A DNA stretch of 64,000 nucleotides, taken from the NCBI GenBank assembly GCA_000934665.2, contig KZ537960.1, forward strand, positions 62,001 through 126,000. The letters run 5' to 3'. Positions 672 to 64,000 of the stretch are shown here, piece by piece; position 1 is the stretch's first letter; the number at the start of each line of letters is the position of its first letter. Origin of the DNA: Catajapyx aquilonaris (lineage: Eukaryota). The notes under the pieces were generated by a model that worked only from the letters and a program-made list of their open reading frames with translations, had not been told where the DNA came from and searched no databases. The translations under genes were made by a program, and so were the position numbers.

Positions 672-700
672 GGGGGGGGGGGGGGGNGGGGGGGGGGGGG
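672..700. other. Poly-G run containing an N (probable assembly join)
   Basis: G at 672-686, n at 687, G at 688-700. Confidence 0.8.
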
Positions 701-1506
701 CTGAGTCGCATATGAATAATTATTTTTTCAAGATTTTATTGCAGTGTCACATTTTCGACAATAAGCTTGGAATTGCTCAATGTAGTCGATGATGTAGTCC
801 AAAATGAAGTCCTTATGATGGCCAAGACATTTTTCTGCTGGAGCAAGAACAGCCTCTTGGAGAAACGTCTAGCAAAAATTGAAGCCTCGTTTTTGGGAGG
901 CGAGCCCAGGTAACCTTCACATTGTAGGTGGGTCAGGGGTCATCTCATTGAGCGATAGGCAAACGGAATGTTGTAGACATGAATTGGTAACCCTGAGCGA
1001 CAATATAATTCTGCATGAGCGGTGAACACCGGATGGTCAGCGCCTTCCAAATTTAGAGTGGAGGTGGCTTACGAAATCTAACTTATAAGTTAGTTAAAAT
1101 ATCGTTTTTTCAAGGCATGTATTTGGGGAAAAAAGGGTATTATCTTCTCTTTGAGACCTTTCCGTTTAACAATATTTCAAAGAAGCCCAATCACTTTATT
1201 TACCTATCGTTCGTTCAGCTCTCTCTATCTCCTTCCCTCCCTCAGGCTTTACGTCCCTTCCCCTGCGGAAATCCTGCGTCGACACTGAGCATATCAACTA
1301 GTCAGACCCTGTAAAATGTAAATGCAGATTCAGCATAAAGACTAAAGTTGGAAAGCAAACAATAGAGTGGGAAGTTGTCCTGCTCTATAGGCCACCCCGC
1401 CGGACAAAAACTTCGGAAGAGCCAAATTTACGAGCCTAAATTAAATTTGCATATCCACAGTTTCTCTTCAGAATCAGTGTACCCATTTTGTGGTTTTTCT
1501 GTTGTA

Positions 1507-4500: not shown

Positions 4501-4679
4501 GATTCAGCCACCGGTCGTAGTACAGCCGGAATGACCCTCGGAGGGTCATCACATGTCCGGCTATGAAATGTCAAATTGGGCCATTCAGCCTCCTCTTGGT
4601 AACATCCCCAAGTTTTGTTACTCCAAGCATACGCACTACCATGAGGACAGCATTTGGGCACCCTGATGACCTGTTCCAT
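1507..4679 (-). CDS. Methuselah-like GPCR, tandem copy 1 (5 coding exons)
   Basis: Exons ~4679-4109, 3039-2961, 2310-2120, 2061-1890, 1837-1507 join in frame at GT-AG sites. Cys-rich ectodomain (VPKCCP...WGC...EYCLD...FYVC) followed by 7TM motifs NIYGK, FFFLSAFAWLTVMCFDMWW, YFYGP, LYIKLFLIMGLSWIMEVVSW, NSLQGLFIFIVFVCK. Confidence 0.88.
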
Positions 4680-4981
4680 ATCCCAGTCAGCATGTCACAG
4701 AACACGCTTGATGCACCGCTGCTTGACTACTGACTACGTTTCGGAGGATGTGGTAGAGGACATGATTTCGAGGACACAGGGAGGCTGGGGATGGGGGCCC
4801 GTTGATGTACACGTACAGTACTTACTGATGGGTTTCTTATGGAGAGATGCCAGGGACACTTGCGGACTATTTTGAGGCACTCAAAGTTAGTGTCTTATGT
4901 AAGAGCTGATATCGTATAATAAGATGGCGATAATGCAGGGTGACACTTTGCATTTATTATTGAAATAATACATACTATATA

Positions 4982-6748
4982 CTAACATTTTGCAGAGTCA
5001 TGACAGGCATCCAGTACGGGCACGGTTGAGATACTTCGTCCAAATGTCGATCGTGACGGGTGTATGGTCATCATGATTGACGTACGTGTTGGGGCGCTTG
5101 TTACCGAATTGACCGACTCGACAGATATGCGATTGAAAGTCTTAGGACCACGTGATTGAATAAATGCGACAGTTTTGGTCCGAATTAATTTGCAGGTGTT
5201 AGGCTTACATATGAACAGCAACATGAGAAACACGCCATGTAAGGTGTTGATGAAATCAGTGAAATAAAAATAGTGTTGAGGGCTATGTATGACACGCTCC
5301 AATACCCAGGATACGACTTCGAACACCCAGAGCATGCCCATTACAACGAAAAGCTTGATGTACATGATCAACCTGTTGACAAAAATAATGGTGGTTAGTG
5401 GCCACCCTTTTTTGGGGGAATAACAATCGTCACCTTCGCTTATATTCTTCAGCTTCCTTTTTTCTCCACAACATTTTTGTTTGTCGAGCAACTTTACAAA
5501 CGCTGATCATGGTCAGTATGAAGAAGATCATGTTGGCGAATAGCAGTACGGCTACGGGGCCGTAGAAATAGGCGAAGTTGGAAGCAACACCTGTAATGTG
5601 AAAGATTTCACAATAATTATACCTATCAACCGTATAATAATATTGTCATATTTAAATTAGATGATGTGTCATACATACCCTGCAACCAACATGATCCTTT
5701 TCCATATGAAGGCCTGAGAACTGATGTTGGAATTTTGGGAGCATATTCAAGAATAAGGGCAATCACCACAGCCACAGTGGGGCTTCCAAATGCGAATGCA
5801 GAATAACTCAAAAAGAATTGCATTTCTCTCTTCTTGTCATTTTCTGGGGGAAGTTGGATTCTGTAATATTTGATCCATATTTGAGTCGTGCTACATTCAA
5901 TAATATTGATCATTTTAAATGGACTCACTTTAATTTGTACCACACATCGAAGCACATGACGGTTAACCAGCAGAAAGCAGACAAGAAGGAATAATGCATC
6001 GATACAGCTGAGAAAAAAATTAGTGGTTATAATATGGAGGAATGGATAAGGCCAACAACGTACCTAGTATCTGGCACCAAGGGCTTGGCAAACGAAGTCC
6101 TCGCAAATGTATGCAAGTAAGAAACAAGTACGCCAAAAAGAAGGTGACCATATTACACAATAAAATTTTCGTGAAGAGGTTCCGCTTCTGCCCGAATATG
6201 ATAATTACCCCTGTGATCACAAATGACACATCTGACAGTATCAGACCAATAGGATACAACACCAGAGGTAATGGATGCTGCCTGGTTCCTTTCATCAAAA
6301 AACATATGTAAGCATTGGGATCCATTTTATATGCACCTCCTTCATCTGATATGTCATATTCCATGCAGTAATGTGAGAAATAGTACACTCCAGTTTCCCA
6401 GCTGGGTGGTATCCGTCCGTACTCAGGTACTATCAGTGCACCAGCATAGTTCAGGTAATATTGGTCCGAAGTAAACTTGATAGGATCCAGTCGAAGTAGG
6501 TTGCATTTTGGGACCCAAATTTTGATTTTGAATTTACTTGGGGACAACGTCACACCCGGATCTGTCTGATTGCTTTGAAATGTGAGGTTCCAGTTCCATT
6601 TGCCAGGGTTATGTATGCAGGACCACGTGGTCACGTTAACACCGTACGTGTACCCTAATGGGCAGCACTTTGGGATCACGATGGTTCGGTTTCCTCCTAG
6701 AACCAGATGCACTAAGCTAATAGCCAAACACACTCTTAAGATACACAT
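4982..6748 (-). CDS. Methuselah-like GPCR, tandem copy 2 (5 coding exons)
   Basis: Signal peptide MCILRVCLAISLVHLVLG, then IPKCCP ectodomain. Exons ~6748-6064, 6007-5929, 5860-5679, 5590-5433, 5372-4982. Motifs YSFLSAFCWLTVMCFDVW, YFYGPVAVLL, MYIKLFVVMGMLWVFEVVSW, NTLHGVFL. Confidence 0.9.
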
Positions 6749-7754
6749 TATAACAGGTCAAAATTCAATCCAAAACTGCATTATGCTGTACCGGTACTCA
6801 AAACAAATACAAAGTCAGGCGGATACATATTCGAAGGATACGTGTTGAATTACTAATTACAATGCAAAATTGCCATCTGAACCGTGGCCATATTAGAGGG
6901 GAAATGTTCTGACTGACATAGGAAGGTCGTTGTTTGCATTTGATAGCCCAAGAAAATTTGCTGTTAAAAAAGCTAATTAGTACCCGTAAATCCGGCTTAT
7001 GGTATTAAGTAGATTTCCCAGGAGTCTAGTTTGTAGATATACTTTCATAATGGCTACTTAGCTCGCAGCTGTTCGTTTATATACGGACCTGAGAAAAATT
7101 GAGGCTCATTTATATCCCTGGCAAATAAGGACAGACCTCGAAATTGGTGTTGGTTGACAACTTTACGGGCTAATAAGGTCTTCCCAAGTTGCAACGACAC
7201 CTCCCGCTGACCAAACATGCATCGTGTGTACGTTCATTTTGTTGGGCGTTTGTTTGTGAACATGTGATGACCTTGAGACACATTACAGGTTAATTATTTG
7301 CTTTACCTTATCAAGTTCAGATAATTATTTTGAAATCATTCATCGATTTCTTGCTGGTTATTGCACTACGTTTTATGGTACCTGGTACTGGCACCATCTG
7401 CTACGAATTTTAGTTGAAATATTTGTTTTAATCACATGCCTATACAGCAGGTGCGCAGTGGTTTAATTTATACACCTTGGCAGACCACAACTGCTGACGT
7501 CATACAGGACAAGTCATGCATGAGAGCTGATAATATGTGCATATTGTTTATTATTCTGACAGTCTGGCAGTATTATACTGCAACATTAATTCCATAGTTT
7601 ACACGGTCTTGGGGAAATTCCCGGACTAGACGAAGAAGCGTGATTGACATAGTCTTTTCCTCCTTTACAGAATCAACACACAGGTACAATATTAATGAAC
7701 ACAACACGTATGAAAAAAAACACCTCATTTTTAAATTTGAAATAGTCTACATGT

Positions 7755-10568
7755 CTATTGAACCGATTCCACCACCTGTGACGCAGGTACATTTCCACTA
7801 CACTGACGTTTCCTTTTCACGCTAATCCAGGTGCTTATATCCGTCATAACAATACTTGGTGTTACGTTGGTACATCGCGCACTTCCACTACTCTCTTCCC
7901 TAGAATTGACCATAGACGTGCCTATGAATCCTTTGGTGAGCACTGCCAACTTGCTTCGTATTTTAAGTAAAGTCTGTCTCTTGAACAGGGTCACCACAAA
8001 GATTAAGACTCCTTGAAGAGTATTCAGGAGGTCAGACACGTAGAAATAGTGGAGTGGTGAACTTAAAGTTGAATGGCCAAACCACGATATGACTTCGCAA
8101 ATCCAGGGGATTCCCATGACTACAAAAAGTTTCAAGTACATTATGAATCTGGAATTAAAAACACTGGATTAATTTGGGTATAAATTCTGGCGAAGGAAAT
8201 GAGGTGCATACTAAATATAAAACTTTCCGTCACATATTGTGACGAACTGACATTAGATTGTTTGTCCAAAAGTGACATGAACAGTGATGTCACAATATGC
8301 TCGGGAGTTGTGACATTGAACTAACTAAGACCTTTGCCTGTTTTGTCGCTGATGAAATTGCGTGTGACGACCATTGTCCACACCTCTCCATGTGGACTGC
8401 CCATCTCTTCTGGCCACACATATGTTGACCGAGGTCAGCACGAACAACACCAGGTTGATCACCATCATAACTGCTACCGGTCCATAGAAATAAGCCAAGC
8501 CAGAGTCCCATCCTGCCATACAAAGTAGCTATTATTAAACAGCACATTTGCATTAAAGTTTGATGACATTTCCTAGAGTAATTAGTCGTGACAGAACAAA
8601 GTAAGGTGTGACATATTGACTCACCTTTCAGCCAACATTGAAAGTCCTGACCATAATTCGGCTTAATTACAAAGTCCGGTATTCCTGGCATGTAATCGAG
8701 GATCAGTGACAAGGTGAGAACCACGAGTGGTCCTCCCCAGGCAATAGTACAATAAATTATGATCAGACGAGATGTCAAGGTTCTACCAGGAGGAGGAAGT
8801 AGTTTCCTGTAAGAAATGTGTGACGTCATAGGTGTTGTTATAAATTTAAAATTTACTCAACGTAACCCTAAACTCATATAAACTCAACTAGAAACTGGCT
8901 CGCGAGTTTATAGTTAACGTTAGCGTATCGTTGACGGCAGACAGTCTCCATAATCAAATTAGATATTACAAGGTGAGGTCAGAGTACGATAGGTGAAATG
9001 GGAAGTAGGCGTGGCCACTGTTTCCTGTCTTTTTAATCATGTCAACGTGTCATGCTGGGTCGCTTTAGGTACGGTATATATAATATGGTGCAAAAAAACT
9101 TGGACACTAAACCTTATAGCGTACACTTTCGGCGGTATGACAATGCATATACTGTAGTTGAAAAAGTGTCTCAATTTCATACACATAGGCCTACCTAGCA
9201 TAAATTACAGTTTACTACTTCCCAACAGCAGACCACTAATTAAAGTCACATAAATTCATTAACAGTCCCACGCATAATACCCAGAACCTAAATTAGCCCA
9301 TAATAACGCCCCCGTAAAAGCTACACTACAATTACTTCTGCCCACCTGAACTTGCGCCACATGTCGTAGCACATGACGGTCAGCCATGTAAATGCTGACA
9401 AAAAGAAGAAATTGACCAGTATTCCTGAAAGAGCAAAAGAAACATTTAGTACACATCCAAAGAGACAATAATTGATGGGGAATGGAAGCAAGTGGCTTGT
9501 GTCAAACTGATGTGGTGTTAATCTAGGGGTTAAATTTGGAACTCATCTCGCAGGAAGAGCTGCGAGACTTGATGAGCGATAAGAGCCATGTTGGCAATGT
9601 AGAAAATTGTGCCAAAATTAATTTTTCACACCCTGAATTTTTTTTGCATTATAATTTTAGCCAACAAATGCGTGATAGATCAGGCAGGAAATTTCCAGTG
9701 AATTACAAGAATGTTCTAATGCCATTAACCGTACTGTAGTTCAACAACACTATTTGGCAACACGCGGTTTCAATTTTAGACCACTTGGATGTTTGCTCAT
9801 CCGTACATTACACCCTCCGTTTCCAACACAACATCCCGGTATAGAACACATCCTGTAGTTTGACAAATGCTACATACTAACAAGTACAGTACCTGTAATT
9901 TGGCAGGTGAAATGATGCGGAACAGGCTTTCCAATCTTTCCAACACTCAAGGCCAGGTATCCCAAGAACAAGCTGGTCACGTGATTCATCAATATCTTTC
10001 CATACAAATTCCTCATACCAGGTAACACATACATCAGAGCCAGAGTTATGAACAGGCTGAGGTCAGAGGCCACCAGGGCAACAATGGTGCTGATAGTGTA
10101 CCACTCGGGAGTAGGTCGCTCCGGATCGTCGTGAAAGCACAAGAACAGAAAAGGTCGACCACGACTAGATTGTTGCGAGAGGTCATTGTCAATACAGTAA
10201 TCACCAGAACGATAGAGACCATGAGGTGGGTCAAAGTTCACCCAAGCTGGCACAAACGCACTCCCATCTTCAAGCAGATACGCCTGATCTTCCTCCGGGT
10301 TTTCATGGTTCAGAAGAAACTGGCTGCATCCCGGATTCTGATGAACAACAATGTAATCCAAATCCGCAAGAGACAGATCCCTCTTATGAAAGGTCAAGTT
10401 CCACTCCAAGATGCTCCCATGTGGATGACACGTCCAGGTTCCATTTCTGTAGTCGTAAGTAGAGTCCAATGGACAGCACTTGGGCACAGTGACTGCCATG
10501 GTCAAGTCCAAGCCACGTGTGAGGATCCCCACTTCTTCGTATGTCCTAAGGGCACCAGTGGCCTTCAT
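7755..10568 (-). CDS. Methuselah-like GPCR, tandem copy 3 (5 coding exons; start uncertain, ATG at 10568 or 10499)
   Basis: VPKCCP ectodomain and RNLYGK. Exons ~10568-9893, 9424-9346, 8806-8625, 8512-8332, 8148-7755. Motifs FFFLSAFTWLTVMCYDMW, YFYGPVAV, MYLKLFVVMGIPWICEVISW, NTLQGVLIF. Same intron positions as copies 1 and 2. Confidence 0.88.
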
Positions 10569-13052
10569 ATAACTCCGGCGCAGAAGCAAGAACCAGATGT
10601 GACCAATCCCTGATCAGGGCGATTCGCGAGAAAAGGCGGTTCATTTACGCGTTTCAGCTCGGGGAACAAATGATTCAGGCCTATACAATCAGCCAGGATT
10701 TGGATGCTCCTCTGTGGAGCCAACGAACATAAACAAATGTGGAGGATGGTCTTATTTAGGATTTTTGGAGCTAATTCGTCTTGTGTTTCAGATTTCAGAT
10801 AATGATAGGATTAGTGCTAATTGGCTTTATTTGTAATTGTGGTACAGATGTGAACAATCCCTCAGATGCGCACTTCTTCGGTTTGTTTACACTGGAAGGA
10901 AGTGGTAATGACATTTATATTGTTGCTTTGATGTTGACAGATATGTGCATGCGTAGACCATAAATCGACTACACATTTCGCACTTAATTTACATGCGAAA
11001 AGTGAAGCGTCGTAAAAAAGTTTAATAACTTACTCGTACTTTGAACCCTCCCTTACAACTAAAGGAGCATTTCTGGTTGTACCAGTATTGTTTTTATTTG
11101 CGTATACAGTATAACATTTCGGTATTCTCCACAGGGTGACGAAAGTGCTGTCGTGTAGATGACTTCCTCTTGAAAATAATAAAAGAAAAACAAGGCGCAC
11201 ATCTTTGTGAGATAAGGATGGTGCCGATGGGGGTTGGGGATAAGCTTCTTTACATTTTTATTTACAGATTATTTTCCCCTTTTTTGGGGGAAAATTCAAT
11301 CTCGTATTATACGAAAGTGCTTGGTTTTATGTGCGTTTTTTTTTCTTCGCTTTGTTACTATCTGGGAGAAGGTAGGGCGATTAATTGACCCCTGTCCATT
11401 CCGTGCAAGACATAAATTTTTGTTGTACTGTCAATAAAGTTGTAGTGATGTCCATGAATGGCATGGTACTTACAGATGACCAGCTCGGTTAACAGTCTTC
11501 CAAACGTATTTTCTGCCCAGTGATGGTTACCCAGCCATAAATGAGTATGCGTAGTTGTGCATATTAGAGATTTCACATACTTGGGAAAAAATGAGTGACG
11601 TATTGATTAAGTATACTGTACAAAATATTATTGCAAAGGCCAACATAACTTATCCCCATCTCAGGACAAAATCGATATTTCTTCACCCACCTAGGTACAG
11701 TACAGGACGTGGGATGTGCTGCCAATCAACATGTTATTGTAACTGGACAAGCTGGTACACTTAATAAATAATAGACAACAATAGAAGGATTGTGTCATAT
11801 GATATTGTGATTTCAAGTTAATGCTCACCCATTTTTTCACACCTTCAGGCTCGTAATCCGATCCTGAGGAAACGTGCATATACTCTAAACTTTGATCCCA
11901 TTTGAAGGACAATATAGATGACATCTTGATAGGATTTATTAGCCTGAGGTTAAAAATATTGAGATTCTCTTTGCTGCTGAAAGCTTTGTGAGTGCGCACA
12001 GGAGGCGGGGAGAGCATAGGCTGTGAACCACGGTTGCTGTGGTGATGATTTGCATCACTACTGGGTGCAAGCTCCAGACATTCGTGTGTGGTAGTCTTGG
12101 ACCACTGGTACTGGACAGCAACAGTTGGTGAGTATTTGCATCTTTCTTCCACCAAAGGTCCCGTCTGTTTTGTATTAGATAAAAAAAAGTATTCATTTTC
12201 ACTATATCAGAGGAATCTGGCTTGAAAACAATGGGGTTCTACCCTTGACCCTGGAAGAACAATGATGATATACTGCAAATGTGATACAGCGTCTAGGATT
12301 TTTATCACCAGACGTACTGCAGCCATGCAATTAAGAAACAGTTGGACCAACGCTTTTTACCTTAGAGCTAAAATTGGAGTTTTTTTTGAGTTGTTTTCAA
12401 CTTATTATTATAGACAAGTTTGCATGGTTTGTTACACGCTAATGCTGATTTATTTTAAAATGACTTAATTTGAAACCACTTCCAGCATTTTATGGTTTTT
12501 AAAATAACCAACCGTCAGCTTATGATTTATACTTATGGTGTATGTGTAAAAAATGCTGGAGCTTGGCCCTGGCTGGACAATGACACCTTTGTTCAACCGC
12601 GTGCTGCGCAGTTGTACAAACAACCCAGGGTGGTACTTGTAACCCTGACTTTTGAACCACTTAAAAAATGACATAACTTTTACCCGAAAAACACATCCAT
12701 ATAATTATATTGCCCATAAAGTTGTGCATATTTATGTACCATATGCGACCATCTTGCTTGTAGTTATCATAAACTATATTTTTGCTGAGGCCCTCAGGGT
12801 ACTGTAATAGGCTTACAAATGACCAATCATGCAGTCTGGGCTGCTTATCACTGATGACGTGACTGGTCTCACTATTACCTTCTCAGCTTGCACCTCTTCC
12901 TTCGATGTCGCAGAGTCTGGTCGTGCAGTGATTGTGAGTCACTCAGTCAGGATCTGGCGACGTGAGAAGAAGCGAAGATATTCATTCCCTTTAATTACGT
13001 GTAGATCAGTCACAAATCAAATAATTAAAAATCGAAGTTTGGGGTTGATGAA

Positions 13053-14599
13053 ATGTATTCGAATTGGCTGGTGAAGCAGGAGCCACCTGACTTGGAAGAT
13101 GACCCAAACATGGAAGGTATGGCTCAACAGTGCCCAGAAGAGGAGACGAGGCGAGAAGCACAAGCTGTGACCAAGTCAGGCGACCCAGAGGACACTGTCA
13201 ATTTGTACCAAGTAAGTGTTTCAATTTCTTGACATGCCCTCTGAACTATAGAGGTTCACTAATTCCTTTCTTCCTTCATGCTTCTTTATCTGTGGTTGGT
13301 CTGCACTGTACAGTACCCACTTGGATCGCCCACAAGGGCTTCCTTTTACAGTACCCTCTTTCATTTAGAGAAGCCCACGTGTGCACAGGAAAAGTAATCA
13401 ATATCAAGTTATATTCGTCACCATATTTTCCGGGAATTCTTTACTCAGATTTTTTTCCGGGTGATAAATCCAGGGAAAAGAGAGGAAGTAGACCAGCTCG
13501 TACATTATGAGTCTTAATCTCATTTGAGCACGAGATATGCACAAGAAAACTTATTTTCCCTTCAGACGACTTCATGATATTGGTGTCTACTTTCATCTTA
13601 CTGTGCTGCGCATCCTGTTTATCAATGCCACCGACCCTTTTATTGATATAACATTGTTACAGCATCCATCTCTCTCCATCTTTTATAGATTGATTAGATT
13701 TGGATGTCCATTTCCGTGGTAGTGCCTTCTTCTTCCTTCCGCATTATTTGAAAGATTTCTGCCCTCCTCCTTGTAGGTAATAAAGAAAAGGCAATATCTC
13801 ACTTCCCAAAATTGAAAATTTCCCCAACTTAACTGCTAAGCTACGCCACGCATTTGAAACGTATAATATTGGGGTCAATGTGTTTCTTGCACGAGTTAAA
13901 GCCGAAGTGACCCATAGTTATAACTTTATAAGAGTTATTTGATATGGCCAGCGTCACTTACAGTCATTTTCTCGCTTTTAAAAGGCAGGAGATGCTGCAA
14001 AAAATACTTGGAGTCCGATACAGGATATGTTAACGGAGGTGTACGTCTCAGAAGAAGTAAAGAACCTTGGGACGATCGAAATCAAAGAGGGGACAACTTC
14101 AATTTCTCGCTTCGAAAAGGCAGGAGATGCTGCAAAAAATACTTGCAATGCCATACCAAATATCACAACGATGCTGGAAATCGGAAAACCAATGGAGATG
14201 ACAGAGGAGCCTTTACTATTTGAGGATGACACTACTTCAACTCTACAATTGGACCAAGAGTTGCAGGGGTACAACGAGGGTTCATCTCCACAATTAAAAG
14301 AAGAGTTGCAGGGGTACGACGAAAAGAAGGTCGTATTACCTCCACAATTAGATGAAGAATTGCAGAGTGACGACGTAAAGAAATTTGTTTTATACCCACC
14401 ATTGTACCCAAAGTTACAGGGAGACGACGAAAAAATAGTTTCATCTCCACAATTAAAAGAAGAGTTGCAGAGTGACGATGAGAAGGTCCAATTATTACTA
14501 CAATTATTAGAAGAAGAGTTGCAGAGTGACGACGAGTTCGTTTTACCGTGTCATACCGTCGGCTCTAAATTGGCAAGTATGCGCCATGGTTGTTGGTGA
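13053..14599 (+). CDS. Candidate acidic repeat protein of unknown function, possibly 5' exons of the drosha transcript
   Basis: ATG 13053 reads MYSNWLVKQEPPDLEDD...NLYQ to a strong phase-0 donor CAA|GTAAGT at 13212. A pyrimidine-rich acceptor (ttttctcgcttttaaaag|GCA, exon from 13985) is in frame with the 190-aa acidic ORF 14027-14599. Confidence 0.5.
14243..14540 (+). repeat. Degenerate tandem repeat (~6 units of ~40-55 bp) within the ORF, encoding xQL(K/D)EELQ(G/S)(Y/D)DE
   Basis: Recurring ccacaattaaaagaagagttgcag(g/a)g core. The reading frame stays open through all units. Confidence 0.85.
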
Positions 14600-14793
14600 T
14601 CTAACTAATTTTTGTGATGTTTTGTTGAGCTGCTGATTCCATTTTTTCGTAGTTGGCGCCAGGCCCGAGTCAGCCACAGCTGTCCGAATGCGACCCTCAG
14701 TTCGGAAGCGGAGGTAGCAACGCGCCCAAACATAAGGGGAAGAAGAGGGCAGAGCACACGGTCGTGTGTGGCCATCCGTCGCAGGGCTGGAAG

Positions 14794-17700
14794 ATGCCTC
14801 GATGTCCTCCTCCACCTGGGGTGGTCAGGCACCAGGCGGCTATGATGAGGGGGGGCATGGGGCCTGAGTTCTTCGGGAGAGGCCCGCGCCCGATGGGACC
14901 CGCGGTGCAAGGAGGGCCGGGGTTCGCCCCTGGGCCGCCCCCTGGAATGCAGCCTGGTGGACCACCCGGTGTGCCCATGCCTCCTGGCATGCACTGCCCG
15001 CCGCCGCCTGCTTGGGGCTCCATGCCTCCGATGTACTCTCCGCAATGGGGACAACCACTGCCACCACCACAAATGGTATACTCAACATATGGTATCGCTT
15101 TTAAGTTGGGCTCATAATGCCACTGGTGCTAAACTTCTCAGCAGCAAACTACACCTGCAGAATTAACATGGCAACTCTGATTGTACAAAAGCACATATCT
15201 TTATCTAAAATGTATGGCTTGTTTCAGCAGCCTGCAATGCCATTAGGAAATCATGGCTTCAACGTGCAAGGCTCCAACATGCCTGCAATGCAGTGCCACT
15301 TCCCGTCGCCAGTGCCACCGACCCTGCGTCCACCTCCAAACATGTACCAAAATGTTGTGCCCATACAGGGACCACTCCCAGTACCATATATGCCACCACA
15401 ACCCCAGACCCAACCTCAAAATCCAGGGCAAACCCAGCCCTGTTGCTACATGCCAATTCCTTTCCCTCCCCCTGTCAATCTCCCACCCCCACTGCTTCAG
15501 GTGAACAACTCGGCTACATCACCAGCAGTGGCTTCTTCTGCTGCTGTCAGGGAATCGCAGGATGATGCAGGCACCAGGGACCCACACTCATCCAGCCCAG
15601 CAACTGATCACAGGAGGTCTCATAGGCGTAGATACAGATCCAGGTCTGGGTCCCGAGGACGCGAAGATGACAGGAGACGCTCTCAAACACCTGTCAGGGA
15701 TCGGACAAGGTGAGGGTAAATCTCAAGGGCCACTGAACTGACTGACATGAATTCTTGTTGCAGTGAGTCTAGAGAGAGGAGGTATTCTTCTAGTCGAGAC
15801 AGGGATCGTGAGAAGGACTCGGGAAGGTCAAGATTAGAATCAAGGACCTGGGACAGGCAGTCCTGCAGTCGTGAGAGAGGTAGGGACAGACGGTCACCAC
15901 CCAGGCCTAGGAGAGAGCGATCAAGTAGCAGAAGTCAGAAGAGTATGTATCGGCCAAGACGATCTGAACACAGAAGCCCTGATGATCAGCCGTGAGTTAT
16001 TAATTATAATGTTACCCCTCTGTGTATTATGACTGAAGTGTTGAGATGAAATAAGCCTGAATGCTTGAGTAATTGAGTGAATGTTAAAGCCAAGGTTAAA
16101 GACATTGCCAGCTTTCACAGAAGGTGCACAATGGACATATTTTCAATTTTGGTTGCTCATAGATTTTAAAATTTAAATGTTTGAATGCTGCTCCCTTTCC
16201 AATACCGTAGTACGTTGCTTTATGACACTTTGCTTTGCAGTGCTTTGATAATGCAAGACTTTTCAATGATATTAATTAATTTTATTTTTGGAGCTTGCCT
16301 TGCTCTTGGAGTGTACATTCACATTAGCTGAGTCCCAGCCTAATTGACCAAATTAACCAGGTCCATTTTAAATGTGTTTTTTTTTTCCTGGTATAGCACT
16401 CCTGCACACTAAATAAAAAATGTAAACATGTTTCGAGGCTTCCATATGGACTAGGAAGTTTAAAAAGTCTGTGATTCACTCTATTGTGACATTCACTTTA
16501 TGTCAGTGGTCTGGAACGTAAGCCACTGTATTAGCGAGGCATGCCTATATCTGGATTGTGTAATTCAGTAAGGGTAATAATATTTTCTTGCTTTTTCCAG
16601 ATCAACTTCTGCTGCCACAGATCCAGCTGAACCCAAGGGAGAGTCTGCCAAGCTGCCACAGATGCTTCAGAAATTGACTCCAGAAGAAATGCTTGAGCAG
16701 GAGAAGAAGGTTTGGGTGAGATCTGCACCTGCTGATCTCCACTACATACGGGATGAAGAGTAAGTGGTATTCCTTTCCACTCATCTTTCTTGTTGGCAAC
16801 TAAAGCAGCACATTGGCAAATAATGTTTTGCTGACACCAGTAATTATTATTATTATCAATTGCATTATTACAGGAACACCAAGATAATGAGAGCAACTCC
16901 CAAGTTGGAGGCACTCTGCAAACGTTTTGAGCATGATCTCTTGAAACGTGCTGAACGTGTCCGGGCAGCTAAGCCGAAGTTTGAGTTACCACCACGCAGG
17001 CAGAAATTGCGGATCAGCAAACACAGAGGTATTTCATGGTACTGGCAGATTTTTTTTTTGCTTTATTAATGCCTGCCTTTTGGAACAGCAACATGCTCCC
17101 CCTGCGATAGCAGTTCAGACGATTCCAGTTCAGAGGAGGATGAGAGTGACTTAGCTTTGGAGGAGCTGGAGAGAAAGAAGCAGCATCCAGACCGCCTTCA
17201 TCCAGAGCTTTGGTATAATGATCCTGGTGAGATGAATGATGGTCCGCTCTGCAGGTGCTCCGTTCGAGCTCGGAGGTCTGGAATTCGACATGGTATTTAT
17301 GCTGGTGAATCAGGACTCAAACCATGTGACCTACTTACCAACAATGCACATCGATTGCATCACTACCGGATCACTATTTCACCTCCTACAAACTTCTTGG
17401 TAGGTTAATATTGAAAGAAACAAAATTAAAGACAAACATTAATGACTATTTTATTTGACAGACTAAAACTCCTACTATAATCAAGCATGATGAACATGAG
17501 TTCATCTTTGAGGGTTTCTCCCTTTTGTCACATCATCCTCTGGAGAAGCTCCCTACCTGCAAAGTTATTCGATTTAATATCGAATACACCATTCTGTACA
17601 TTGAGGAGAAATTGCCAGAAAATTATGTAGTTGAAGAATTGGAACTGTTTGGTATGTGATTAGTAACTCATTGGTTTTTTGCTGTCCATTACCTGAGTGC

Positions 17701-20700
17701 TTCCATGTTTACAGGCAAGTTTCTCTTCACTGAGTTGTTGGAATTGGTTGATCTGGACATTCATGCTGCAGGAGACAAAGATGGCTGCCCTCGCTTTCAC
17801 ATTATGCCCCGTTTCGTAAGAGAGCTTCCTGGTAAGTAATTAATAGGTGTTATTTTGCATCATGTTCTTATGGAATATTGCTATGCTTTTCAGATAATGG
17901 AAAGGAAATATTGTCCATGAATGTGGTTATGGCATACTTGTTGGAGAGCAGCAAACCGTTGATCAATGAGTCAGAACTTCCCCACCTGCTGCAGATGCCT
18001 CGGTTTGATTGGCACAATTATGTAGATGAGATTAAGGGCATGATTGTGACCTACCCTGGAATGAAGCCATGTTCTATGCGAGTTGACCAACTCGACAGGG
18101 AACAGGAGTCACGCAAGAGGAATGAGCAGCAACTGGAGAAGGAAGGGACAGGAGAGGAAGGAGAAGACGTGAAGGAGGGAGACAAAGAAAAGGTGGCAGA
18201 GAAGGATGAAGCACCTCCTGAAGGAAGTCATGCCTATCCTGAGATTGTTCACTTTGGAATCAGGCCACAGCAGCTGAGCTACGCTGGCAACCCAGAGTAA
18301 GTTGAACAGAAACTCATAAGTCACTTGAGAAGTTGTATAAGCAACTGGTGTATATGTTTTGAACATAACTATTAAGATTCTATTATGGTTGCATAAACTT
18401 ATTAGAATGTGTTAGTGTCATGTTTATTAATTTTTCTGCTAGAATTTCATATTGACCACTTGAACTATAATATGAATAATTTGACGACCTGCAGGTACCA
18501 GAAAGCTTGGCGAGAGTATGTGAAATTCCGGCATCTCTTGGCAAACATGCCCAAGCCATCTTTTGAAGAGAAACGGAAGCTGGAAGCCAAAGAGAATCGT
18601 CTCCAAGAGATGAGGATGCAGAGCAAGATGAAGCGAGACGTGACAGTAGCTATATCCAGCAAAGGATTTTATCGCAGCGGGATCATGTGTGATGTGGTGC
18701 AACATGCGATGCTCATTCCTGTGCTGGTTTGCCATCTGCGCTTCCACCAGTCACTGAACATTCTTGAAGATAGCATAGGATACAAGTTCCAAAATCGATA
18801 TCTGTTGCAGCTGGCATTAACTCATCCTTCTTATAGGCAATGATAATCAGTAGTATCTATGGAGGTGTACTCGGCCCTCTGCATTGACCTGGTCAAAGAT
18901 GCATGTACTTTTATCAGTAACTTTGTTTCACAATTCATAGAAGTTGTCCTATTTCCAGGGAGAATTTTGGAACAAATCCTGATCACGCTCGCAATTCTCT
19001 GACGAACTGTGGAATACGTCAACCTGAATATGGTGACCGGCGGATTCACTACCTGAACACTCGCAAGAGGGGCATCAACACTTTGATCAACATTATGTCC
19101 CGATTTGGAAAGAAGCAGGAGACTGAGTCCAACATCACTCACAACGAGCGACTGGAATTTCTGGGTGATGCAGTGGTTGAGTTCCTCTCATCCATTCATT
19201 TGTTCCATATGTTTCCGGACCTGGAGGAGGGTGGATTGGCCACGTACAGGGCTGCAATTGTGCAGAATCAACATCTGGCAGTGTTAGCAAAGGTAAGGTT
19301 GCTTTCAAGTGAATTCAATATCATCGATTAAGTCAATAAGTTCTTGAGATGCATTTCCAAGAAGACTTGATTGATGGTTTGCTCTCAGTGTGGTGTCTAC
19401 TTCCTCTTTATATCTCTAAATTTCTAGAATTTGAAGTTGGACCAGTTCATGCTCTATGCTCATGGTTCTGATTTGTGTCATGATCTGGAGTTGCACCATG
19501 CCATGGCAAACTGCTTTGAGGCCTTGATGGGAGCTCTGTTTCTGGATGGAACCATTCAAGAGGGTGACAAAGTGTTTGCCAAAACATTGTATGGGGATGA
19601 CAAGGATCTCTTGGATGTGTGGGTCAACTATCCACCCCATCCCCTTCAAGAGCAAGAGCCCAATGGTGATCGCAAGTGGATTGATTCCTTCCCGCTTCTG
19701 CAGGTAGCACTTGCATTTGTTGTATTGTCATCACTGGGTACACTCTGAATCACATAAGTGTGAACCTTTCTGGATATCCATATGCCCAAGGGGTCGGTGA
19801 GCTGCCGCGCCGCAAAATTAGTCGTCCGTATCTCTGGCTTTCTCGAAGATACAGTGCTGGTATCAACAGTTTTTGAACTGATGATACATGTAATTCAAAT
19901 GCCTAATTATCATGGGCAGCCCATGCAGTAGCTGCAGCGCTACACAAACTGCACATTTTGTTGTGATGAGCGGTAGGACCCGGCATGTTGGGCACTACTT
20001 TCGGGCGGTTCACCGACCCCTCGGGCATATACATATCGAAAAAGGTTCACTCTTATGTGAATCGGAGTATATCTAGTGGTTGGACAATCAAGCCACTTCC
20101 ATGCAATTTATTGATCTTGTGTTGGTCTTGTTTCATTCTACAGAAACTGACAAAATTTGAGGAAGCGATTGGAGTTGAGTTTACTCATATCAGGTTGTTG
20201 GCACGTGCATTTACCGATCGAAGCATTGGATACAACAATCTGACACTGTAAGTAGTGGCGATTTTTGTTCCGATCATCGCCTAGTTTCTCCAACATTTGT
20301 TTAAGCTTTAAGGTATATGCTAAGTGTTGTACAACTGCATGCATGGAAAGTAGAGGTTTTGACAGCAGTGCCAGAATATTTATTTGTGCCTATTAGTACT
20401 GTAGGTTGAATTTGGGATAAAATTTAACAGGATTGCATTGTGGAATTTGAGTAAGGAATGTCATGAACTCCTATACTAACCATCACAACATACATTGCTT
20501 ACAGGGGTTCCAATCAAAGACTGGAATTTCTGGGTGATACAGTTTTGCAACTTATTGCTTCTGAATACCTGTACAAGTTCTTCCCCGAGCATCATGAAGG
20601 CCACCTTTCAGTGAGTGATGTTCGATTTTGTGTTTTAATTTCGGTGGTTTGACGATGGCTTTGTTATTATAGTTGCTACGGAGTTCATTGGTGAACAACC

Positions 20701-21380
20701 GTACTCAAGCTGTGGTCTGTGATGACCTTGGCATGACTGAATATGCCCTCTACTCCAACCCCAAAGCTGAACTGAAGACCAAAGATCGTGCAGATCTCCT
20801 GGAAGCCTTCTTGGGCGCCCTGTATGTGGACAGGGTTAGTGCGGCATGAATTAATGGAAAAGCAGTTGGTAATTAATTTTTTATTTGCAGGGCTTGGACT
20901 ATTGCCATGTTTTTTGCAACGTTTGTTTCTTTCCTCGACTGCAAGACTTTATCCTCAACCAAGACTGGAATGATCCAAAGTCAAAACTGCAGCAGTGCTG
21001 CCTAACCCTGCGAACAATGGATGGTGGAGAACCAGACATTCCTGTGTACAAAGTAATTGAGTGCAAGGGTCCTACAAACACCCGTGTATACACAGTGGCA
21101 GTATACTTCCGGGCAGAGAGGCTTGCTAAGGCATCAGGCCATTCCATACAACAGGCCGAGATGAATGCTGCCAAAGAAGCACTGGAAAGATCTCAAGGTA
21201 GGAATTACTGGAGCAGTTGATAGACTTCAATACTTTCCATGGATTGGTTGTGTATCCTTAATGCCTTTTTCAGATCTGTTTCCTCAACTGACCCATCAAC
21301 GTAAAGTAATTGCGAAGAGCATGAAGAAGCAGAGGAAACCTCAGAAGTCACCAGCATCCAGTAAGGGAAGGAGTCGGTGA
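14794..21380 (+). CDS. drosha: Drosha (class 2 RNase III, Microprocessor catalytic subunit), multi-exon; true N-terminus may lie further upstream
   Basis: Pro-rich N-terminus (14794-15709) and RS-rich exon (15764-15991). Conserved [79 protein letters not shown]. Two RNase III signatures, [14 protein letters not shown] and [15 protein letters not shown]-terminal ds[17 protein letters not shown]...[10 protein letters not shown]. Last exon 21274-21380. Confidence 0.97.
19751..20059. mobile_element. MITE with ~55-bp imperfect TIRs in a drosha intron; CAC...GTG termini and 3-bp AAT duplication (CMC-like superfamily is inferred)
   Basis: Left aat|CACATAAGTGTGAACCTTTCTGGATATCCATATGCCCAAGGGGTCGGTGA pairs with right TCACCGACCCCTCGGGCATATACATATCGAAAAAGGTTCACTCTTATGTG|aat. 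No ORF. Confidence 0.8.
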
Positions 21381-22955: not shown

Positions 22956-25900
22956 TCACTTCTCCTTCAGGATTGCCTTGATTGACTTTTGTGCTTCCCC
23001 CATCTGCTGGGTCAGCCGTTCCTTCATAGCGGTGGTGGTGGCAGTCTTCTTCTTTTCCTCCAGATCCTGCAAAGCCAACTTGTAACCCGTCACATTGTGG
23101 AAAACACGCACATGCTTGTCCCCTGTAGTCAGCAGGAACTTTCCCATGGAATCAAAGAGAACTGCCGTGATTGGTTCTGTTGGAAAAAGTGTGGATCAGT
23201 AACTTCTGATACACAAATGCCTCATAAATTGTTTACCCGAGTGAGCCTTTCGAATGGTCCTTTCAGAATGACCATTCTTGGTTGAATAGAACCCCACTGT
23301 GGTCCCGGAGGCAATGACAATCACACGGCTGTCAGGTGAGATGGCCACGCATGCAGGGTGCTCTGTTGCTTCATATTTCTCAGTCAGTAGCAGGTATGGA
23401 TCTTGTCCCTTTTCAAATTCAACTAAAAGGGGCATGGGCTGTTAGTGGATTGGTTCATGGAGCAGGGACAATGATGCAGTACCTGCCGTATTAAAAACTT
23501 TCCAGCTGCCATCCTTACACACTGTCACTGCGAGGGAAGCATCAGTGTTGAAGGCAATAGCATAGACACCCGAGTTGTGTCCCTTCAGGTCAAAGGCTTT
23601 GGATACCTTCTCAAATTCGCCCGATCTGCTGTAGCCAACTTTAAACACCTTGACATCTGGAGTGAAGCCTGTGCAAATAAAGTTCCAGTGCTATTTTTAG
23701 TATACCGTACATGTTGACCGCAATCCCCTTGGTCTCATCGGGGTTGTAGGACATGCATGGAGTCCATGCCCAGTGATACATGACAGTATATGAGGTAGAT
23801 AGATGGTATTTGGGCAACATGATGTTTCAAAATAGCATCTCACATGAGCCAATCATATTGGGCTCTTCACCAGTAGAACAGGGAACCGCACTGCATGGTG
23901 CATGCTCAGGAGTCACAGTACCAAATGCAACTACAAACCCAATGCCACTTGCCATTCATCAAATATGAATGAAATGTTACAGCATATCTGGAATCCAAGG
24001 TACTGTACAGTTTTGTACAACCTTTCACAGCATTTGCAGTTCTGTGGCATCTTACCCCAAGCTCCTTACTATCCCCCTAATGAGGTAAAATATTACAGGG
24101 TGACAATTGTTTATCAATGATTCTGAATACCAAAGCTCATGTTTGGTGCAGGCAAGTCCCAACCTCAAGACAATAACGACAATAGCTCTGTCCGGTTCCC
24201 TGTTCTCAGCTAGCTTTGAGGCAGTTCTCGGACTTCCATAGTTGATTTCCTGACTGTTTAGCACAAGTGTTGCTCACCAGAAGTTCCCACAAAACGACAG
24301 CAAGGTGATATGGCGAGACAGTATGTATTGAGGTGGTATGTGTCAAAGGTCGCCAGGACGTCCCCATTAAGATTCCACACCAGCACATCAGTCTTGCTAG
24401 AACATGAGACTGCAAACTTGCCATTGACAGCGACAGCCAGGTGGACAATGTCGCTCTGATGCTTCTGAAAATTCACACCATTTTTATTTTCTGAATTTTC
24501 CACCCACGCATTGTTTGGATGTCATCAGAAGTCTTCATCTTACCTTTTGAAAGGGGAAGGATGGCTCAATATTTCCAGGTGTTCCATCAGGCTTTTTGCC
24601 CACGCTGTACACCTCGAGGCTATTCTCCAATGCCTTGTGTGCAAAGAGGGCCCTTCCATCAGGATGCCACTTCACTTTGGTCGCATGATCGAATTCAATT
24701 TTGGCACGTGTGGATTTGTGGTGGCCTTTCCTCTCAAAGTCTTTAGTGCTCCAAATCAAGATACTCCGGTCTGAAATGACAGGGGCCTCCTTCATTTCTC
24801 CTGATTACGAAGCAAACTGACAATTTCTCCCAAAATGCAAAGCAGAGTGAAGGGAAGTGACTGCGTTCAAAAATTAAGAGCTCTCGTCACAAGTTAGTTA
24901 TAATTTTATTTTTCCATTTCTACAAAACTACAAAATGGACATGTATCAAAATGTGTGGTAATACTATTCATGATGAACCACTTTATTTTGTTTGACCCCA
25001 AAAAGAGGCTAGATATTTAAATGCTACAGTCACACTTTTTTAACAAAGACATTTCTTGAACCATGCTAACAGCATGCGTATGTGAAAACAAGGGGGCTGA
25101 ACAGAGAAAATAAGAACATTGCCCACCGTGAAAATTGTTAAAAGAATTGGCCATGCAAGAAAATGTGCAAAAATTCCACATAAAACATCACAACCATCTA
25201 ATGATCCACCAAATTCATCCTAATGACTACAAAAAAATCACATTGTGCCAAGAGCACAACCATCAACACAACCCTTGAAAAGGGCTGCAAAGTACTGAAG
25301 GTACACATATCATAAATAATAATAATAAACTGATGGCGCTTTTTGGTTTACATCCTTTTCGTTTCAATGGCACAGTGGTTGAAAGTAGAGCTCGATCCAG
25401 TCAAGCACCACCATTGTCCAGGCAAGTTAAAAAATTTATTTTAAAAGATCAGACGACTGTAGATGCGACTTTTGATTTTTTTAAAGAAAGGATTCCTATT
25501 GCTGAAGTCCAACTTGGAATGTCAAGTGTAGCCCACTTGCTATGTTACTGAGCGCGATATGACCTTTTTCCCAACACAAAATGGCTATGAGATCACAAAG
25601 TAAACACTTACGGACAGTATAAATAGTATAAACAACAATGTATAAACAACGGTAAAACACATGCAAACAGGAAGTTATGTACAGAGTGGAAAACTGTGCC
25701 CACAGTTAAACTACCAGACGTCTGGGCCCTTCTTTGCAAATTTATATTGCCTTGGTACAGATTGGCAAAAAAATATGTTACGAAAAATATGGGTGCACAA
25801 CAGTTGAGCATTTTTGTTGATAACCACAACTTTTCAAAACTGAAACACTCACTTTTAGCATGTGAACTGTCCAGAATCCACTGTAAATGTTTTTTGGGCA

Positions 25901-28900
25901 TGCAAAAGTCTCAGAAAAAAAAAATGTCTACATGGCAGCACTTGTGTCCTTCCTCACTTTCCACAGCATGAGCTCCAGGCAGGCACGTGCATCCTCTAGG
26001 CTGTCATGTCCGCCGCCTTCAGTGTCCTGCTGAATATTCCTCCTCAACACTGAGTACACAACGGACTTAAGTGACCGCCGATATGGTAGTCCGTAAAAGT
26101 GTGGAAAGACTACCGAGGTGTCCACTACTGTTGGATGCACCATCCTCAGTGCCCGCAAGTCATTCTCCAGACCATGGCCAACCAGAACTGTATCTCTCGA
26201 GATGAAATCTAGCAGATCACGCTGTACCTCCCGCAGGGTCTTTCGGGCACAGGACAGCTCAGCGGCAGTGATCCCTGAGAACCTAGTGTTGTAATCCACA
26301 ATCTCGCCTTCAGGCTGCACTAGCGTGTCATACACTAGCCGTCCATCAGCCGCTACAAGTGTGGCTTTGACTACCTCCATTCCACGTGTGGTGTAGCACA
26401 TTTCACAGTCCATCGCATAGACTCTATTTGAGTCACGTGATGATGTCTTCACATAACCTTCGTATGGCCCATTCATCCCCGGTCCAACACCGCTCCACAC
26501 ATGTGACGCGGCAATGGTGCACCCAGGTGTATCCTTCCGCTCTCCACAGCACCCGTACACCATTGCAGTAGTAGTCTTTGTCGTCACGCGATGTAGCTTG
26601 CCCCAGTGATACGTGCATGTCTCTGAGGCCACATACTCTCCCCCACTACGCACCTTAAACCCAGAACCGCACCGCACACATTTTTTGGTGTCCTCCTCTA
26701 CCTTGGTGTTACCGTTCATGTCTGGTGTAGGTGAAAACTTCCCATCAATTGCTTTGTACACAACAGCCTTGCCAGGTTGAAGAGTGCTCTCCACAGGGTA
26801 GCCAAGAGCTAGGAGCTGCTCTGGAGGCAGCGCATATGCTTTCATCCAGGCGTACAAACCCTCTTCACTCATCCGCAACCGCTGGAACTGACGCCACACT
26901 GAATTGGCATTGCGTCGCTGTGCACTGTTTTCCTTGTTGCTGCGCTGAGGGCGTGGCCGGTTTGGCTTCAGAAACCCTTGCTGGAGAATCGGCTGGTTGT
27001 TCATCAAGGGCGTGAGTGTGAATGGTGATGACATGTCAGCAAACTGTGGCTCGGCACCTCCAGGGTCTATTTCCTCCATGTCTTGAACACCGTTGGGAAA
27101 AGCAAATGGGACCCGACACGGGTGTGCAGACCACTTTTGCGCCGAGTTGGCTACTGTTCCTTAAGAATAACAGTGGCCAGTTACTGATCTGTGTCGGGTG
27201 CTACAGTTCCCCACTCCCCAAACCAACATGCACAGGAATTGTAAGTCAACCCTGCCACCACCATGAGCTTATATGCAGTCATGCAGCTGTCTAGGAACAG
27301 GGGAGCCCCATTGATGTGCTTATCAACTTCCCAGGAAACTACTCACAACTATTGAGTCAGCCCACTACTTCCTAGACAGCACTTCCTCATCATGAGGTCA
27401 GACCCAGTATGATGTAATCCCCCAGTTGCTAGTAATCAGCTATGCCTCATCAATTCCCTTGTAAGTAGAATTTGTAGTGGGATTATAGGAATCAAGGTGG
27501 GTCTGTTATCAGTAGTATTACACCCATGCAGGATAGCGAGAATTTAGTGACACTCAAGCCCTGCAGTATTGGAAATGATCAAACATTTAAAGCGCCTGAA
27601 AATGCCCCACACATTTATGGTACTGATCACTTCAGAACTACAGGATCCAAGCAACACTAAATCCGCATGAAGCTTTCCAGTAAGTCACTCACCTTCAGAA
27701 CAAGTGGCAAGGTATTTCCCATTGCTGCTAAGGTCCATGTCCAGGATCCGCTCAGTGTGTCCCTTCAGGGAGGTGGCCAACCACGCATGGGAGAAGTTGT
27801 CCTTGTTTTCCTTGCTGCCTTTCCCAGGGAGCTGCTTCTTCTTGGCCTTTCCTGCTTTGGTCGGTGCAGGCTCAGGCACATCCTCTGTTTTCCGCTTCTT
27901 GCCTCCTTAAATAATCAGAATATGTGCTGTGATTATAAGGAACAAGACACATCAATGCCTACAACAATTATTAACAATATGATTCCATCAATGAATCAGA
28001 CTTTCTGGACTCTGGAGAATGTACACCTTGCCTATAATGTGGCTATGATAAACAGGGACTCATGAATGACAAAAGGTACATTTTACTAACACTCTTACAA
28101 GGGCTACTTATTCTTACACTTGTGCAAGGGTACAGTTTATTGACAAGTGATGTATTGAATGTGCTTCTTTATACCCAAAACAACACTTGGCGTTTGGTAC
28201 TGAATACAACAAATTGCAAATATCAAGCTCATACAAATGGTTTCTCCATATGCATGGCAGCAATGCCATGAAGTACAAAAACCTGCTTTCATAAACACAG
28301 CAATACAGCAGCTGCCATTTCTTGCAGCTGCTGTCAGAATTGCGGTACCCTCCTTTGTGGCTGATGTCACCTTTGCTCCCATTGTTACTGTGACTTGCTT
28401 AGGCAGGGTTGTACCACAATGGGTTTTACTTGAAATCCTGGGGTTAACCCTGTTATTAACTGCTCTCTGACAAATAATAACAATGGTAATCCCGAGGGTT
28501 TAACAAGTTACAACACCATGCCATAAAAAGCGAGGCAACCTAAGCATCTACCTGGGTAATTATTGTTGTTGGGTGAATTCTCAAGTTCAGTATAATCTGA
28601 TAAGGATCCTCTGGAAACATGCCTTCACTTCAACTGTTAAGGATATCCAGACTGTGCCAGAAATAGTTTCTTTTTCAGATTTGCATGCACATATGCACTA
28701 ACAAAGACGGATGGTGACTCATCCCATTTTCCTTATTTCCATCCACACTCTGTTCCCAGTAGATGGTTGGTAAAAATATCGCTTATATTCCTGGTACCAC
28801 TACTTTGTAAGAACACATGATTCAAATATAGCTACAACAGGCGCATTTAAATTTGTAATAAAGGCCACTAAGGTCTGGTAATATCCACTCTCCTTTAGCA

Positions 28901-63981: not shown

Positions 63982-64000
63982 GGCCCTTGAGCTGTCTCCC

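Follow-up and report, generated by a model that had tools for sequence, protein, structure and literature searches.

An acidic repeat frame upstream of drosha in Catajapyx aquilonaris: a possible lineage-specific coding unit sharing the drosha transcription unit

Just upstream of the drosha gene of Catajapyx aquilonaris, in a 64,000-nucleotide (nt) stretch of animal DNA (contig KZ537960.1, positions 62,001 to 126,000; hereafter the window, in which positions are counted from the first letter), lies an acidic, repeat-containing open reading frame (ORF) that is arranged head-to-tail with drosha on the same, plus strand. This arrangement raises the question of whether the two belong to one transcription unit and, if so, whether the acidic residues ever become part of Drosha. 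A first-pass annotation had proposed that two splice donors 4 nt apart choose between an acidic Drosha fusion and a dicistronic mRNA. We arrive at a different reading, to which we assign a probability of roughly 40%: positions 13053-14599 may represent a lineage-specific two-exon coding unit for an acidic, disordered repeat protein of ~250 residues that shares its primary transcription unit with drosha. Some form of co-transcription of the acidic ORF and drosha is plausible, and the Drosha protein most likely starts at ATG 14794, as it does in relatives.

All positions on which the earlier proposal was built (ATG 13053, donor 13212, acceptor 13985, GC donor 14573, GT donor 14577 and acceptor 14653) were recovered. 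The locus can be laid out as follows, with slashes marking splice junctions:

12823..12875, plus strand: promoter-like motif cluster upstream of candidate exon 1, found by regular-expression search (CCAAT at 12823, TGACGT at 12855 and the motif-1-like GGTCTCACT at 12865)
13053..13211, plus strand: candidate exon 1, an ATG-initiated frame of 53 codons (MYSNWLVKQEPPDLEDD...NLYQ), from ORF translation, followed by a strong donor (CAA/GTAAGT)
13212..13984, plus strand: candidate intron of 773 nt with a pyrimidine tract and then a weak AAG acceptor, from reading the sequence
13964..14156, plus strand: in-frame duplication with a 135-nt period (13964-14021 and 14099-14156, 88% identity over 58 nt), from a blastn self-match
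13985..14572, plus strand: candidate exon 2, the acidic repeat-containing frame (588 nt, 196 codons, phase 0-0), from ORF translation
14246..14554, plus strand: six diverged tandem units (QL[KD]EELQ[GS][YD]DEK...) of 45, 54, 57, 48, 51 and 54 nt, from unit alignment
14573..14652, plus strand: candidate short intron of 80 or 76 nt with tandem donors TTG/GCAAGT (14573) and CAA/GTATGC (14577), from reading the sequence
14653..15075, plus strand: first coding exon of drosha, a 141-nt GC-rich leader open in frame and then ATG 14794 (gaagATGc), from ORF translation
15228..21371, plus strand: rest of drosha, with Pro-rich and RS-rich exons, the central domain, two RNase III domains and a double-stranded RNA-binding domain (dsRBD), from Pfam, tblastn and inferred introns

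The downstream gene has the attributes of a Drosha (class 2 RNase III) enzyme, namely two RNase III domains, a dsRBD and a central domain. Pfam searches of the window ORFs returned Ribonuclease_3 (E = 1.8e-12) and dsrm (E = 1.7e-12) for this gene, and Drosha of the damselfly Ischnura aligned to 16677-21371 in tblastn with 45-97% identity (query residues 364-1382, both RNase III domains included). Moreover, all 120 listed matches of the central-domain exon were Drosha-type proteins, the closest listed relative, from Odonata, showing 57% identity. The RS-rich stretch is found in exon 2 and the exon after it. Further downstream, drosha contains an apparent GC-AG intron (18837-18958, TAG/GCAATG ... 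atttccag/G); as read-through would meet a stop after three codons, splicing at these sites is the only way to keep the conserved Drosha junction, and GC donors thus appear to be used in drosha.

Several properties of the sequence between the two frames are consistent with a shared transcript. The acidic ORF, with a TGA at 14597-14599, ends 195 nt before the drosha ATG, as had been reported, and no polyadenylation hexamer, in any of 12 variants, occurs between 14453 and 15300; the next AATAAA on the plus strand does not come until 16412, where it lies in an intron of drosha. The GC content is 0.32 in 14600-14649 and 0.64 in 14650-14699; this step falls exactly at acceptor 14653, a TAG after a T-rich tract, and is what an exon boundary would give. 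In addition, the candidate intron that would end there bears two branch-like motifs, CTAAC and CTGAT, ahead of its T-rich 3' end, and its length of 76-80 nt matches the short introns of drosha (56-135 nt in nine of the 13 inferred introns). Upstream of exon 1, the promoter-like cluster is accompanied by initiator (Inr)-like TCAGTC elements at 12943 and 13006; we take the consensus sequences to be YGGTCACACTR for Ohler motif 1 and TCAGTY for Inr. The region 14400-14700 contains no TATA element or DNA replication-related element (DRE), and a single Inr-like TCAGTT at 14697.

These same features bear on an alternative in which the two genes are independent neighbors: the acidic ORF would be a young gene with a non-canonical 3' end, drosha transcription would start at ~14600-14790, the acceptor at 14653 would go unused and the frame relations described below would be coincidental. 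Such a separation would agree with the Inr-like TCAGTT at 14697, with the coding signatures of the acidic frame and with frame coincidences that fall within chance, and a minority of insect polyadenylation sites do lack recognized hexamers. However, it would have to place a 3' end and a promoter within just 195 nt, in a region from which all 12 hexamer variants are missing (14453-15300) and which has neither TATA nor DRE (14400-14700), and the GC step within a few bases of the T-rich TAG acceptor also argues against it. We therefore consider independent neighbors unlikely.

We suggest instead that transcripts may start at a promoter near 12.85-13.0 kb, would meet no polyadenylation signal before drosha and would enter the first drosha coding exon via the 14653 acceptor. 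If that acceptor is used, 14653-15075 would be an internal exon and the upstream exons would form a 5' leader. Drosha translation from 14794 would then take place on transcripts that either lack the acidic exon or begin further downstream, and the acidic frame, when included, would be a long upstream ORF (uORF) or first cistron and not part of Drosha.

This proposal supposes that the acidic frame encodes a protein. We consider it probable, by a fair margin over even odds, that the frame is, or recently was, coding sequence. The open frame that holds candidate exon 2 spans 13982-14599 (205 codons) and is laid out as a diverged 45-codon duplication followed by the six repeat units. All six unit lengths are multiples of three, as are 10 of the 10 gap runs in the DNA-level alignment of the units, despite ~25-30% divergence. 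In the proposed frame, the ratio of nonsynonymous to synonymous differences per site (pN/pS) among the units is 0.43-0.45, with 15 of 15 pairs below 1, compared to 0.66 (11 of 15 pairs below 1) and 1.30 (2 of 15) in the shifted frames of the same alignment. A codon log-odds model trained on 3636 codons of the window (coding mean 0.041, standard deviation [sd] 0.064; other ORFs -0.053, sd 0.066) scored exon 2 at 0.034 in frame vs -0.096 and -0.123 in the other frames and -0.175 antisense, while exon 1, at 0.177, gave the highest score of the tested pieces, above the coding mean. GC content by codon position (0.53/0.30/0.42) resembles that of the drosha exons. Moreover, candidate exons 1 (24.5% D+E, pI 4.05) and 2 (21.4% D+E, pI 4.18) are the second and fourth most acidic of the 544 frames of at least 50 codons, and they are neighbors on one strand; that adjacent exons are both extremely acidic supports the two-exon model. 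These coding signatures are individually weak, yet they agree, and modestly favor real coding.

The opposing view is that there is no gene here, only a chance or repeat-driven frame in a 5' intron of drosha or in spacer DNA, in which case a non-coding first exon, for example one ending at ATT/GTGAGT (12934), may join 14653. Indeed, tandem units without stops stay open on multiplication, both strands are open over the repeats, an AlphaFold prediction shows no fold, no search returned a homologue, and the GTGAGT at 12934 is the fifth-best donor of the 198 scored below. The duplication can be read either way: its first copy begins 21 nt upstream of the 13985 acceptor and carries TAA in place of the GAA of the second, a difference compatible with decay and with exonization alike. 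A non-coding origin would not, however, lead one to expect unit lengths and gaps that are all multiples of three at this degree of divergence, a pN/pS that is lowest in the proposed frame, in-frame codon use at the coding mean or two adjacent frames of window-extreme acidity. We hence regard the absence of any gene as an unlikely explanation, if one to be taken seriously.

The acidic frame is an orphan, specific to this species among the databases searched. Pfam assigned no family to candidate exon 1 or exon 2, exon 2 had no match at E <= 0.001 among 1.84 billion representative proteins, exon 1 had no homologue at E <= 10, and a search of the ESM Atlas gave no usable match to the acidic frame. 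Metagenome loci were found neither for the acidic frame nor for the first drosha coding exon, and no further copy of the frame exists within the window at the DNA or protein level. In the protein databases searched with drosha and acidic-frame pieces, neither this species nor any near relative of it was represented. AlphaFold (AF2, run without an alignment) gave exon 2 a predicted local distance difference test (pLDDT) score of 38.7, which fits disorder and is otherwise uninformative.

To compare the candidate splice sites, we built donor and acceptor position weight matrices (PWMs) from the 13 inferred drosha introns and scored 198 GT/GC sites and 149 AG sites. Among the donors, 14573 ranked second, 13212 third, 12934 fifth and 14577 twelfth, the score of 14573 being inflated because one of the 13 training donors is a GC site. 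The acceptor matrix was judged overfitted and not used to rank acceptors, as its training set consists of 11 CAG and two TAG sites. The top of this crude acceptor list is filled by sites within the acidic repeats, because the six nucleotides that precede the cut look like a 3' splice site; the sequence upstream of these sites is purine-rich. Between 14262 and 14530, five of the six repeat units hold GAGTTGCAG or GAATTGCAG, and the sixth holds AAGTTACAG.

A number of these and further results weigh against the shared-transcription model or its premises. The acceptor PWM, for what it is worth, places 14653 only 53rd of the 149 AG sites (score -3.1) and 13985 14th. Coding and other ORFs lie only ~1.4 sd apart in the codon model, the minimum numbers of substitutions by codon position (14/11/19) do not differ significantly, and the repeat units were aligned with the frame-0 protein as a guide; the repeat pairs, moreover, are not independent of each other. 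An antisense frame of 190 codons (13978-14550) is open as well, showing that repeat composition helps to keep frames open, and a frame of at least 205 codons appeared in 10 of 100 Markov-simulated 64-kb windows. The real window contains seven such frames, mostly real exons; the length of the acidic ORF is thus mildly unusual, and repeats ease long open frames. No search found a homologue of the acidic ORF, the best Drosha match of this organism itself being only 57% identical. The Inr-like TCAGTT at 14697 would permit a separate drosha transcription start site (TSS) downstream of the acceptor. Finally, a uORF of 250 codons would strongly depress Drosha translation, so that transcripts including it could be only a minority or regulatory.

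The frame relations between the two ORFs deserve separate treatment, as they are what gave rise to the idea of a fusion. The drosha frame is open from exactly 14653 (ORF 14653..15117), after the acceptor tttttcgtag/TTG, as the first-pass annotation had pointed out; it opens at precisely this base because the TAG of the acceptor is itself an in-frame stop. Openness from there to the ATG is readily obtained: a 47-codon stretch of the local composition was open in 41% of 3000 simulations, and 14653-14793 is in fact free of stops in two of its three frames. By simple reasoning, moreover, if two donors are placed 4 nt apart, one of them will agree in phase with the acceptor in two cases out of three. 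The frame-compatibility between the acidic ORF and drosha is therefore within chance.

The drosha start itself argues for translation from the downstream ATG. ATG 14794 has a purine at -3 (gaagATGc) and is followed at once by Pro-rich sequence (MPRCPPPPG...); 49 of the first 94 residues are P or G, and the predicted protein shows the Pro-rich and then RS-rich N-terminus of Drosha. There is no in-frame ATG in 14653-14793. In line with the earlier remark that no acidic repeat extension of Drosha was known to its author, none occurs among 98 full-length N-termini (at least 1100 residues, among the 120 listed matches), which instead consist of a short stretch followed by Pro/Asn/Tyr-rich sequence. 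In human DROSHA, the Pro-rich disordered domain is described as located right at the N terminus, with no other part of the protein being less conserved (PMC10270192).

Two apparent resemblances of the upstream sequence to Drosha N-termini did not hold. A DPQF within 14653-14793 was considered as a possible match to an N-terminal motif of cockroach or cricket Drosha, which would have placed coding sequence upstream of ATG 14794, and dropped, given that the 98 N-termini are variable and the homology search was negative. Likewise, LVKQEP in exon 1 (13068-13085, residues 6-11) resembles LVKTEP at the same position of one ant Drosha (P0051), but other ants differ at those positions and the likeness was judged a coincidence; both peptides fit what we take to be the hydrophobic-K-x-E consensus of SUMO-type sites.

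Coding upstream of ATG 14794 via a spliced exon would be a minority possibility. One form of it, absent from the earlier annotation, is a direct join of exon 1 to 14653, which is also in frame (159 nt + 141 nt, both multiples of three, with the frame open throughout); Drosha would gain an extension of 100 residues from ATG 13053 via donor 13212, and the acidic exon would become an optional phase 0-0 cassette. The high coding score of exon 1 suits this possibility, as do the 47 codons of 14653-14793, which are Pro/Gly/Ser-rich and GC-rich like the downstream coding exon and unlike the AT-rich flanks. Yet these codons score 0.008 vs -0.055 for the other open frame, which provides no separation, their openness has a chance of 0.41, and the good context of ATG 14794 agrees with the start in relatives. 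In addition, neither piece was matched in any relative, 14653-15075 (the first drosha coding exon together with the 47 codons ahead of the ATG) giving no hit at E <= 10. Such an extension therefore seems very unlikely.

The original proposal went further, holding that the GC donor at 14573 would fuse ~250 acidic residues to Drosha, that the GT donor at 14577 would produce a dicistron, and that the choice would tune Drosha amount or isoform. Both predicted products were reproduced exactly. Joining 14572 to 14653 (TTG/GCAAGT) gives a continuous frame without stops into MPRCPPPP..., with a fusion junction ...GSKL/LAPGPS..., and joining 14576 to 14653 (CAA/GTATGC) gives an upstream protein that ends in ...GSKLAIGARPESATAVRMRPSVRKRR (also ...IGARPESATAVRMRPSVRKRR) at a stop at 14717. 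The donors have the sequence of a delta-4 tandem pair, with two GY dinucleotides 4 nt apart in donor-like context (GCAAGTAT); the candidate junction elements are GCAAGTATGC and the 14653 acceptor. GCAAGT equals the U1 consensus but for position +2, the two donors rank second and twelfth of 198, drosha itself has one GC-AG intron (TAG/GCAATG, 18837), and no polyadenylation hexamer separates the two ORFs. Delta-4 tandem donors are, moreover, an established class of alternative 5' splice sites (PMC2423196).

Against these points stands the frame fit, which lies within chance (0.41 x ~2/3). The PWM score of the GC donor is inflated by the lone GC training donor, and none of the 98 Drosha N-termini among the listed matches is acidic. 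Joining exon 1 to exon 2 would require the weak AAG/G acceptor, a type seen in 0 of the 13 inferred drosha introns and rivaled by a CAG 4 nt downstream (exon from 13989), whose use would shift the frame of exon 1 and end it at a stop at 14031; the frame from ATG 13992 has 13 codons. Reinitiation after a 270-codon ORF is inefficient. An RNA switch at the tandem donors was dropped from consideration: no unusual fold was detected at 14530-14680 (z = +0.89, with 166 of 200 shuffles folding at least as well), Rfam returned a single junk match (E = 0.96) for 12000-16500, and only two weak inverted repeats were found. Furthermore, delta-4 shifts are described as mostly yielding frameshifted substrates of nonsense-mediated mRNA decay (NMD) and not two functional outputs (PMC2423196). 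The claim of a 4-nt donor switch comes down to agreements of frame that are easily obtained by chance; in this specific form it is unlikely, and the full model appears very improbable to us. The most elaborate version, in which a young acidic repeat gene was captured by drosha and the GC/GT donors toggle between an acidic N-terminal extension of ~300 residues and a dicistronic or uORF-like mRNA that throttles Drosha, seems very improbable as well.

A reading of 14653 as a spliced leader (SL) trans-splicing site in an operon was also set aside, because the catalytic exons of Drosha are 84-97% identical to those of an insect and, to our knowledge, insects do not trans-splice.

How the locus relates to known systems can be asked element by element. 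GC donors typically match the consensus strongly at +3 to +6, a property shared by TTG/GCAAGT; the GC donor at 18837 is, however, forced by protein homology, whereas that at 14573 is backed by frame alone. With delta-4 tandem 5' splice sites (A5E-delta4) the donors share the two GY dinucleotides 4 nt apart and the 4-nt frame shift; such pairs arise naturally because the donor consensus GTAAGT carries a GT at +5/+6 (PMC2423196), and GYNGYN donors are their 3-nt (delta-3) counterpart (PMC1779574). The cases described differ in consisting mostly of a productive and an NMD form of one protein, while here the upstream site is GC, the outcomes would be a fusion vs two cistrons, and the pair is a candidate only.

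Dicistronic or read-through pairs are known from Drosophila, with stoned A/B and Adh/Adhr as examples. The present locus resembles insect dicistronic or conjoined pairs in having same-strand ORFs 195 nt apart (77 nt once spliced) with no polyadenylation hexamer between them, and resembles both these pairs and uORFs in that the upstream ORF could gate downstream translation. It differs in being known from sequence alone and in having an upstream ORF without homologues. Long or conserved-peptide uORFs are recorded in Drosophila (PMC2276209). A literature search combining "drosha" and "dicistronic" returned, among the matches listed, yeast, bacterial and plant RNase III and small nucleolar RNA (snoRNA) processing and no dicistronic drosha.

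In vertebrates, alternative splicing in the N-terminal region of DROSHA alters its localization (PMC4914122), DROSHA modulates the splicing of its own transcript (PMC5473138), and the Pro-rich domain is removed by proteolysis (PMC10270192); the DROSHA N-terminus is thus a known site of isoform control. As described there, however, these vertebrate events take away or change Pro-rich or RS-rich parts of the gene itself, and involve neither an upstream acidic module nor a neighboring ORF. The acidic frame itself is reminiscent of orphan, disordered acidic repeat proteins, given its lack of homologues, low-complexity acidic repeats, pLDDT of 38.7 and weak purifying selection; this likeness is a description and not a family, and has no transferable function.

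The surroundings of the locus were also surveyed. On the minus strand, 1507-10613 hold three or four tandem paralogous genes, whose N-terminal exon is Cys-rich (VPKCCP... motif) and whose further exons encode multi-pass membrane segments (...IMYIKLFVVMG..W..EV.SW...). Their sole Pfam signal is a weak 7tm_2 match (E = 0.026, under the cut-off), and they may be Methuselah-like receptors. As the nearest of these paralogues points away from the acidic ORF, 10.7-12.9 kb is a divergent intergenic region. Other genes of the window were identified by Pfam at 25928-27160 (minus strand), 32585-33127 (minus), 37791-38294 (plus), 45629-49183 (plus) and 57815-59089 (minus); the kinds found are an RNase_T/REXO-like exonuclease with an EloA-BP1 match, a Rad51-family ATPase, a TRAFD1/XAF1-type zinc finger and, one on each strand, two genes for sodium:neurotransmitter symporters (SNF). 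The top codon log-odds in the window (0.12-0.18) belong to frames that were not part of the training set, at 27688-27906, 22959-23195, 51947-52138 and 63589-63999, all on the minus strand, which are probably exons of neighboring genes. The window sequence contains one N, at 687.

For the present, the locus mainly poses a problem of annotation, in that its orphan ORF could be mistakenly fused to drosha, or mistakenly left out, by gene predictors; its frame-compatible splice sites seem meaningful but fall within chance. Each of its elements belongs to a known kind, and what would be new is the proposed way in which they come together at drosha. If the acidic frame did turn out to be fused with Drosha, or to be translated before it, the Microprocessor would be tuned in a new way, and an essential gene would have taken in a young one. 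A toggle between the GC and GT donors, if real, would place control of Microprocessor dosage at the level of splicing, unlike the feedback through DGCR8 hairpins in vertebrates.

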